Source: Escherichia coli (lineage in GTDB: Bacteria; Pseudomonadota; Gammaproteobacteria; Enterobacterales; Enterobacteriaceae). From it: DNA of 64,000 bases. Below, piece after piece: positions 27,164 through 27,814 of the stretch. The stretch lies in assembly GCF_003790525.1 (NCBI RefSeq), contig NZ_CP033635.1. The stretch is one strand, 5' to 3'. The position numbers and the translations under genes were made by a program. The notes under the pieces were generated by a model. That model worked only from the letters and a program-made list of their open reading frames with translations, searched no databases and was not told where the DNA came from. Every line of letters starts with the position of its first letter. The first letter of the stretch is position 1.

Positions 27164-27814
27164 ATGAATATCCGTCAATCATTACATGACCGAATCTATG
27201 CAGAATACCCTCAACAGGCTAAAGATATATTACTGTATTTCCCCACTTATGAAATTATGCCATCGACCATAAAAATGGTTATGATTAATGAGGTGGTAGC
27301 TATAACACCGCAAGAAGATTTTTATACACCAGAGTCTGGTTATTTTACGACTGTCGCCCGACAGTTAGCGCTGGCTGGATTATCGGCAAGTAGTGGCGAA
27401 GTCTTACTCAACCATGGTATCTACCTGACCTCCGCACTGAAACTACCTAAAACACAGATCACAGCCACACCCGCGGAGATCATTCTCTGGTCACCTATTG
27501 TAGAATGGGAGCTCGAACTCTTTGCCAATATAAAAGTTATTTTCGTTGGCGGCGATATCGCGCGAAAATGCCTTAACATCATCGCGAAAAAGCAAACACG
27601 TAAACATGCCATCCCTTCAACTCCGACGTACAAACTGATGAATAGCGAATTAGTCTGGAAAGGAATAAGCATACTTCCTGGATATATTCTTACCGGAAAA
27701 AACCTGCTCATTGAAAAGTCAAAAATCGAAATGAATGTCGAACAATTAAGAAAAGGAATTGCGATTTATCGCAATAGTAACAGTAACCATACGAATAATT
27801 CAGTTCATGAATAA
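27164..27814 (+). CDS. Hypothetical protein (216 aa) in an AT-rich segment
   Basis: Intact ORF; no motif confidently recognised. Confidence 0.4.
   Translation: MNIRQSLHDRIYAEYPQQAKDILLYFPTYEIMPSTIKMVMINEVVAITPQEDFYTPESGYFTTVARQLALAGLSASSGEVLLNHGIYLTSALKLPKTQITATPAEIILWSPIVEWELELFANIKVIFVGGDIARKCLNIIAKKQTRKHAIPSTPTYKLMNSELVWKGISILPGYILTGKNLLIEKSKIEMNVEQLRKGIAIYRNSNSNHTNNSVHE

Follow-up and report, generated by a model that had tools for sequence, protein, structure and literature searches.

What is the gene that stands at the left edge of an anti-phage island in Escherichia coli, and does it belong to the defense operon next to it? The question is raised by an open reading frame (ORF) at 27164–27814 (+ strand) of a 64,000-nucleotide stretch of E. 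coli DNA (contig NZ_CP033635.1 of assembly GCF_003790525.1; this whole stretch is hereafter called the window), which shows 100% identity to the E. coli SMS-3-5 chromosome at the locus. A first-pass annotation of this DNA had described an intact ORF of 216 amino acids (aa), lying in an AT-rich segment between an insertion sequence (IS) remnant and a DISARM-like operon, and had proposed that it is either an accessory or regulatory component of that operon or an independent small defense gene. We found that the ORF, whose coordinates, ATG start and TAA stop are exactly as described there, is a real gene (a WP_001026378.1-type allele with D21 and E162), that its product has the fold of the uracil-DNA glycosylase (UDG) superfamily and belongs to a distinct clade within it, and that the gene is independent of the operon. 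On balance, we favor the view that it is a stand-alone, horizontally acquired member of this clade, encodes a probable DNA N-glycosylase acting on a non-canonical base, and is a dispensable passenger of the island rather than a subunit or regulator of the operon. Because newer RefSeq annotations already name WP_001026378.1 a "uracil-DNA glycosylase family protein", the fold assignment is not new and the earlier description of the protein as uncharacterized went too far; the novelty lies in the definition of the clade and of its atypical active site, in the population census and in the linkage to WYL regulators.

A search of 5.8 billion proteins retrieved 183 variants in a cluster confined to E. 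coli, almost all of them 216 aa long, together with more than 100 further proteins of about 200 aa from Muribaculaceae, Clostridia and their relatives (36–48% identity, E = 1e-28 to 1e-40), and most of these first-search homologues carry a weak precomputed match to the Pfam UDG family (PF03167). An alignment of 28 sequences has 35 invariant columns and a conserved N-terminus, MNI(R/K)QxL, which fixes the start codon; a chance ORF is excluded, since the MNIRQxL N-terminus and the 35 invariant residues are common to proteins of this length from other phyla. Structure prediction and profile comparison, which the first-pass annotation had suggested as a check, both led to the UDG fold. The AlphaFold2 model (predicted local distance difference test score, pLDDT, 86.7; predicted template modeling score, pTM, 0.86) has the four-stranded parallel beta-sheet and alpha/beta architecture of the uracil-DNA glycosylases, and its top Foldseek matches in the Protein Data Bank (PDB) are UDG-superfamily structures only (TM 0.5–0.6), while the viral library BFVD gave only distant UDG-like matches (TM about 0.55). 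With hhalign, the family profile matched UDG family 4 over residues 84–204 with a probability of 95.6% (E = 1.3e-8); the family-4 profile was a three-sequence alignment, for which a Thermotoga UDG sequence was confirmed to be identical to that of 1l9g. The match to PDB entry 2d3y was marginal with the single sequence (E = 0.18) and reached E = 0.001 with the profile.

The conserved residues of the clade cluster where a UDG active site would be expected. In the AlphaFold2 model beta1 comprises residues 38–44, and its C-terminal end is formed by I-N-E-V-V-A (codons 41–46, 27284–27301, +), of which I41, N42, E43, V44 and V45 are invariant among the 28 sequences. All UDG families place the catalytic motif A at the end of beta1, where family 4 has GE(A/G)PG, and by this position E43 is the putative counterpart of the family-4 Glu; the global hhalign alignment with family 4 is unreliable for motif A, as it is over the whole N-terminal third. 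An invariant aromatic pair, F53-Y54, follows the beta1 motif. The second segment, beta2 plus its loop (codons 85–96, GIYLTSALKLPK, 27416–27451, +), lies opposite family-4 "vYItNvvKCRPP" both in hhalign, which pairs the family motif "GIYiTnAvKtPK" with it, and in the hidden Markov model (HMM) match to 2d3y. The UDG Asn reads the Watson-Crick edge of uracil, and the column of this uracil-contacting residue is occupied by Asn in most homologues, by Ser90 in E. coli and by Ala in three homologues borne on mobile elements. In the same alignment, the position of the Fe-S cysteine in family-4 "KCRPP" is Leu or Thr in the clade. Since the E. coli protein contains one cysteine and all but one of its homologues contain zero to two, most members having none or one, there are too few for an Fe-S cluster such as that of families 4 and 5 and UdgX.

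The two remaining segments belong to the C-terminal half. GGDIARK (codons 129–135, 27548–27568, +) stands at the end of beta3 (residues 125–129), with G130, D131, A133 and K135 invariant, and the loop after beta4 (codons 172–187, PGYILTGKNLLIEKSK, 27677–27724, +) is the counterpart of motif B (HPS...) without its histidine. Here P172, Y174, I175, T177, G178, N180–K185 and K187 are invariant, and family-4 F-H-P-S-Y-L-L-R-N contrasts with (M/I/L)-P-S-Y-I-M-T-G-x-N in the clade and L-P-G-Y-I-L-T-G-K-N in E. coli. In the hhalign alignment I175 is opposite the family-4 His, and no histidine is available in either register. Beyond the beta1 motif, the invariant polar residues at the C-terminal strand ends are K93, K96, G130-D131, K135, N138, P172, Y174, T177, N180 and E184-K185. 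This pattern points to an enzyme under strong constraint whose active site has been remodeled, with E43 or D131 as the candidate general base.

Comparison with the characterized families places the clade within the superfamily and outside each of them. Families 4 (UDGa) and 5 (UDGb) and UdgX (PDB 1l9g, 1ui0, 2d3y and 6ail) share 13–18% identity with the E. coli protein. The four cysteines that ligate the [4Fe-4S] cluster of family 4 are missing from it, motif A is I-N-E-V-V-(P/A) in the clade instead of G-E-(A/G)-P-G, and in motif B the His of family-4 H-P-(S/A) is replaced by Ile or Met in a loop that is two residues longer (TG-x-N). Family 5 is defined by motif A G-L-A-P-A, an Fe-S cluster and motif B HPS, none of which the E. 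coli protein has; family 2 (MUG/TDG), with motif A G-I-N-P-G and a catalytic Asn, shares 9–12% identity with it and gave no sequence-level match. Because the defining features of families 4 and 5 and the family-2 GINPG are missing, these proteins form a clade of their own in a known superfamily. In structure they come nearest to families 4 and 5 and UdgX, but they lack the iron-sulfur cluster and the motif-B histidine.

A profile search of 1.84 billion representative sequences showed the family to be small, with 442 members at E <= 1e-3. Scanning one genome per species yielded 263 loci, and the best 80 of these, which were used for the neighborhood analyses, are all from gut Bacillota (the Enterococcus raffinosus/avium group, Lachnospiraceae, Oscillospiraceae, Clostridium and Hungatella) or Bacteroidales (Parabacteroides, Muribaculaceae, Prevotella and Bacteroides), with identities of 49% or less. 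As no close relative outside E. coli was present among these 80 loci, the horizontal acquisition of the gene was probably either old or from an unsampled source, which fits its low G + C content (40.1%, 38.7% at third codon positions). By tblastn, no homologue was found in 50,697 phage records, and those on plasmids were confined to Enterococcus megaplasmids.

To describe the genomic surroundings of the family, ORFs were called in the 80 loci, the family gene being recovered in 79, neighbors were clustered, and loci were de-duplicated to 34 lineages at 90% identity of the UDG-like protein. The commonest neighbor is an HTH-WYL-WCX regulator (23 of 79 loci; 6 of 34 lineages), located immediately upstream in the same direction and overlapping the family gene or within 25 nt of it. 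For instance, in Lachnospiraceae, Clostridium and others, it abuts or overlaps the gene start at about 9000–10000 (+) in loci L025, L048, L051, L069, L073, L077, L087, L089 and more. This arrangement suggests a previously undescribed two-gene unit of regulator and glycosylase. Members of the WYL class (for example, PafBC, DriD, BrxR and CapW) are sensors of nucleic-acid signals that regulate genes for DNA damage or defense; the WYL neighbor thus fits a DNA-acting protein and does not separate repair from defense.

Other frequent neighbors are ABC ATPase/FtsX pairs, MFS transporters, NmrA-like reductases, GNAT acetyltransferases, MerR, TetR and AraC regulators, DUF6194 and Zn_ribbon_2 proteins. 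In Duncaniella (Muribaculaceae) the gene sits in a stress- or detoxification-type cluster (DJ-1/PfpI, YCII, tautomerase and FMN reductase, most copies also having an HxlR regulator); an IS110-family transposase flanks some copies and an integrase another. In a metagenome-assembled genome (MAG) of Clostridia, a pyrimidine-nucleoside phosphorylase gene lies 14 bp upstream, one further member, itself flanked by DUF3795 genes, is carried by an integrative mobile element (locus L013, 5480–9364), and one is found in a housekeeping-looking, apparently archaeal context. A separate observation is that one family member, P0207 (295 aa), has a Cys-rich DUF3795 domain fused at its N-terminus. When 306 neighbors within five genes on either side were scanned with PADLOC across the 34 lineages, specific defense matches (pAgo, Cas6, PDC-M04A and PDC-S02) appeared in about four; the remaining matches were generic cross-hits to ABC ATPases and MotB, plus the WYL regulators. 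Because defense matches are so restricted, this is not a defense-island family, and the E. coli copy, when set against the 34 lineages, is alone in being located in a defense island.

In E. coli, the AT-rich setting noted earlier was borne out, the gene, its upstream region (26996–27163, 168 bp, 34.5% G + C) and its downstream spacer (27815–28327, 36.1%) all being poorer in G + C than the operon (50.9%). The order of genes from the left is fim, nanC, nanM, nanS, the frameshifted transposase remnant and the UDG-like ORF, which converges on the operon across the spacer of 513 bp between its own stop and that of the UvrD-like gene, so that the position given for it, between an IS remnant and the operon at the island edge, was also correct. 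The spacer is present wherever the operon occurs and retains 93–99% identity in O157:H7 EDL933 and KCTC 2571. Among 5,426 complete E. coli genomes surveyed, the UvrD-like operon gene was present in 525, the UDG-like gene was intact in 92, and its last 161 nt were present in 129 including those 92, which leaves 37 genomes with a 3' stump only. A deletion junction of the EDL933 type (at least 99% identity) was found in 356 genomes. EDL933 itself keeps the transposase remnant, the AT-rich upstream region and the ATG, after which position 27166 joins 27828 with the loss of 661 bp; this upstream region (26996–27163, +) is kept, ATG included, in strains without the gene body. Since the deletion allele retains both, loss of the gene is far likelier than its insertion into the SMS-3-5 lineage. 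The deletion is bounded by an imperfect direct repeat of 11 nt, whose left copy (AATCATGAATA, 27160–27170) overlaps the start codon and whose right copy (AATCATTAATA, 27821–27831) lies just past the stop codon. The repeat, AATCAT(G/T)AATA, brackets the gene exactly, and a third near-copy (TTCATGAATA, 27804–27813) overlaps the stop codon.

These data bear directly on the proposal that the gene is an accessory or regulatory component of the DISARM-like operon, for example one that processes marked DNA or replaces the DrmC nuclease. The operon has no DrmC of the PLD type, and at two chromosomal sites, the tRNA-Phe island and nanS, its 3' end is accompanied by the gene or by a 3' stump of it. In KCTC 2571, the operon resides in a tRNA-Phe integrase island and IS1 took the 5' three quarters of the gene; because of this stump, the gene must have been linked to the operon 3' end before the module spread, and the operon was kept without it. 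However, the two are convergent and separated by the 513-bp spacer, only 92 of the roughly 525 genomes with the operon have an intact gene, and 356 genomes have lost it precisely while their operon is intact. The one plasmid copy of the operon that was inspected has no UDG-like gene next to it, and the immediate neighbor of its UvrD-like gene is an IS3 transposase. Conversely, one E. coli assembly (L102, 7311–9914) has an intact UDG-like gene, and its homology to the window stops at 28474, 146 bp into the UvrD-like gene; beyond the breakpoint there are a sigma-54-type regulator fragment, IS21-like remnants and a pap-like fimbrial operon, and within the locus the defense operon is not found downstream of the breakpoint. 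Outside E. coli, no homologue of the six island defense proteins, and no related helicase or methyltransferase, was detected (E <= 1e-5) among the 1,217 ORFs in the 80 homologue loci. The gene therefore shares neither a transcription unit nor consistent co-occurrence with the operon, and its relation to the DISARM accessories DrmC and DrmE and to the Druantia components is one of genomic adjacency only, on the opposite strand and without any PADLOC match. Absence of conservation in related islands, which the first-pass annotation had named, along with lack of expression, as the outcome that would refute its proposal, is largely what the comparison across genomes found for the accessory role. 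We consider such a role very improbable, and the gene is not to be counted in the DISARM-like system.

Two further explanations concern what the protein does rather than where it belongs. The protein may be a stand-alone anti-phage glycosylase of the Brig1/Brig2 type, which would excise a modified phage base so that abasic sites block replication, its place in the island reflecting the clustering of defense genes. Defenders with a UDG fold are known: Brig1 excises alpha-glucosyl-hydroxymethylcytosine, its homologues were found by PSI-BLAST and its best structural match is reported to be the family 4 UDG 4ZBY (PMC11078745), and the integron-borne Brig2 acts against thymidine-modified phages, its homologues being described as residents of newly acquired A/T-rich DNA close to mobile elements (bioRxiv 10.1101/2025.10.29.685425). 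Like Brig1 and Brig2 (the latter compared by its description only), the E. coli gene is a single gene in AT-rich acquired DNA whose product has a UDG fold and family-4 structural matches, and it lies beside an IS remnant, the DISARM-like operon and Druantia type III. The replacement of the uracil-reading Asn by Ser agrees with a changed base specificity, and some homologues follow a WYL regulator, a class that contains the defense regulators BrxR and CapW. On the other hand, hhalign gave a probability of 0.2% between the family profile and Brig1 (a supplement sequence machine-read from a PDF, in which small errors are possible), so homology to Brig1 was rejected; the motif A read from the Brig1 sequence is GLNPG, and PADLOC made no match. 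Unlike Brig1 and Brig2, the family outside E. coli has no association with defense islands, a bona fide defense gene occurring within five genes in only about 4 of 34 lineages and the typical neighbors being ABC/MFS transporters, GNAT, NmrA and MerR/TetR proteins, and most island-bearing E. coli have lost the gene. Brig3 was set aside as a relative, since the fold reported in its paper is AAG-like and not that of a UDG. Taken together, we regard a Brig-type function as rather unlikely. Still less likely, in our estimate, is that the protein is a housekeeping or damage-specific repair glycosylase in its native hosts and a functionless, unexpressed or decaying hitch-hiker in E. coli. Homologues do occur among stress, xenobiotic, transport or plain housekeeping genes (as in the Clostridia MAG and Muribaculaceae), deletion and truncation alleles are widespread in E. 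coli, and the E. coli sequence is the most divergent and has no WYL partner and no consensus promoter. In contrast, the 216-aa ORF is intact in the large majority of the 183 variants, the common alleles differing only at D21E and E162A, and the E. coli protein preserves all 35 family-invariant residues. The two main haplotypes differ at 3 of 651 sites in the gene versus 21 of 1,679 in the flanks, numbers too small for a test of selection and not decay-like. One apparent divergent orthologue, P0002 (89% identity), was rejected as a frameshifted copy at the same locus in a low-quality assembly.

Several observations weigh against the view that we favor, namely a stand-alone, acquired glycosylase that is dispensable to E. 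coli. The E. coli protein scores below the Pfam UDG gathering cut-off (E = 0.003; 18.1 versus 24.3 bits), which two of eight scanned relatives passed (P0178 with 26.4 bits and P0113 with 24.6 bits), and scans of the protein against NCBIfam, PADLOC and PHROGs gave no match. Motif A has no sequence alignment to any characterized family, its catalytic assignment being made by position, and literature searches turned up nothing specific on the accession, nor on UDG with WYL or UDG with DISARM. The description of the gene as having its own upstream region holds as regards AT-rich DNA; a simple promoter scan of the 170 bp upstream found no sigma-70 consensus on the + strand, and the only sign of a Shine-Dalgarno sequence is a weak GGA some 12 nt ahead of the start. 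The E. coli protein is moreover the most divergent member of the family, deviating at 22 of the 83 columns that are at least 85% conserved (others deviate at no more than 11); its N-terminal part carries seven inserted residues, its C-terminal tail is rich in Asn and Ser, and its isoelectric point (pI) is 8.8 versus 5.4–7.8 in the others. Although almost every E. coli variant is full length, shortened alleles are in circulation (P0263, 161 aa, on 21 contigs; P0264, 177 aa, on 13 contigs), as relaxed constraint or decay in this species would allow.

If the protein is an active glycosylase, it would act as other UDG-fold enzymes do, binding DNA and flipping a base into a pocket where the four parallel strands of the sheet have their C-terminal ends. 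Judged from the model and the conserved positions, this pocket would be lined by N42/E43, F53/Y54, S90 at the end of beta2, G130/D131 and P172-G-Y174...N180; the N-glycosidic bond would then be hydrolyzed to leave an abasic site, with E43 or D131 likely to activate the water. Because Asn is replaced by Ser in E. coli and the oxyanion-stabilizing His is absent clade-wide, the substrate is more likely a damaged or modified base than uracil. A bolder proposal, which we put forward as speculative and rather doubtful, is that the clade represents a previously unrecognized family of the superfamily (Fe-S-free and His-free, with an N-E / G-D / P-x-Y...N active site) whose E. coli branch, marked by its Ser for the uracil-reading Asn and its basic pI, was recruited as a one-gene defense. 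It might excise a modified phage base, or act as a Ugi-insensitive back-up UDG against phages that contain deoxyuridine (dU) or encode Ugi, and the ancestral form in gut Bacillota might be switched on by a nucleic-acid-sensing WYL regulator.

The island to the right of the gene comprises two systems in tandem, a four-gene DISARM-like operon (28328–44563) and Druantia type III (44787–54460, −), the latter as the canonical pair DruE3 and DruH3. The operon, all on the − strand, consists of a SNF2 helicase (41705–44563, 952 aa; DrmD-like, PADLOC 1e-99), a methyltransferase (36780–41702, 1640 aa) that matches DrmMI (1e-57) and a type IIG model better (3e-281), a DEAD helicase (30439–36780, 2113 aa) with an MrfA Zn-binding (MZB/DUF1998) domain that scores as DruE-like, and a UvrD-like helicase (28328–30442, 704 aa), which ends the operon where DrmC would be. 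Because PADLOC matches DrmD and DrmMI, and the DEAD helicase carries MZB/DUF1998, the label "DISARM-like" given to it earlier is fair. The operon also occurs in the tRNA-Phe integrase island (KCTC 2571; L002, 7570–24211) and at 22 places on plasmids (for example, L004, NZ_CP127005.1), so it is a mobile module that is not fixed at nanS.

The intergenic DNA around the UDG-like gene has some features of its own. The left edge of the island is the IS4-like frameshifted transposase remnant (26313–26995, +), which adjoins nanS (25183–26190, +); RefSeq flags nanS as C-terminally incomplete in several strains and its product is called as 326 aa in other assemblies, while a 335-aa ORF with a TTG start is open in the window. 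The best sigma-70-like site of the region (TTTAAA, 17 nt, TATAAT; 10 of 12 positions matched) overlaps the TTG start of an unannotated 61-aa ORF at 28033–28218 (+; the whole feature spans 28016–28218), which differs by one substitution in L102 and sits in the spacer that always accompanies the operon. Between the convergent genes, 25 bp past the UvrD-like stop, a perfect G + C-rich hairpin (GACCAGGAGCGTTTCGGCTCCTGGTC, 28278–28303) may be a terminator, although the terminator scan passed over it for its short T-run. No Rfam family matched within 26000–28500.

If the protein is active, it would represent a further biochemical family of the UDG superfamily, one that works without an Fe-S cluster or a catalytic histidine and has a new base specificity. 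Should phages be restricted by the E. coli copy, glycosylase immunity, recently opened up by Brig1, Brig2, Brig3 and Dag, would come to include a gene carried by about 2% of complete E. coli genomes; if the protein does neither, the gene should be excluded when the DISARM-like system is delimited or cloned. The 92 genomes that carry the gene and the 356 that carry its deletion provide natural, isogenic-like comparisons.

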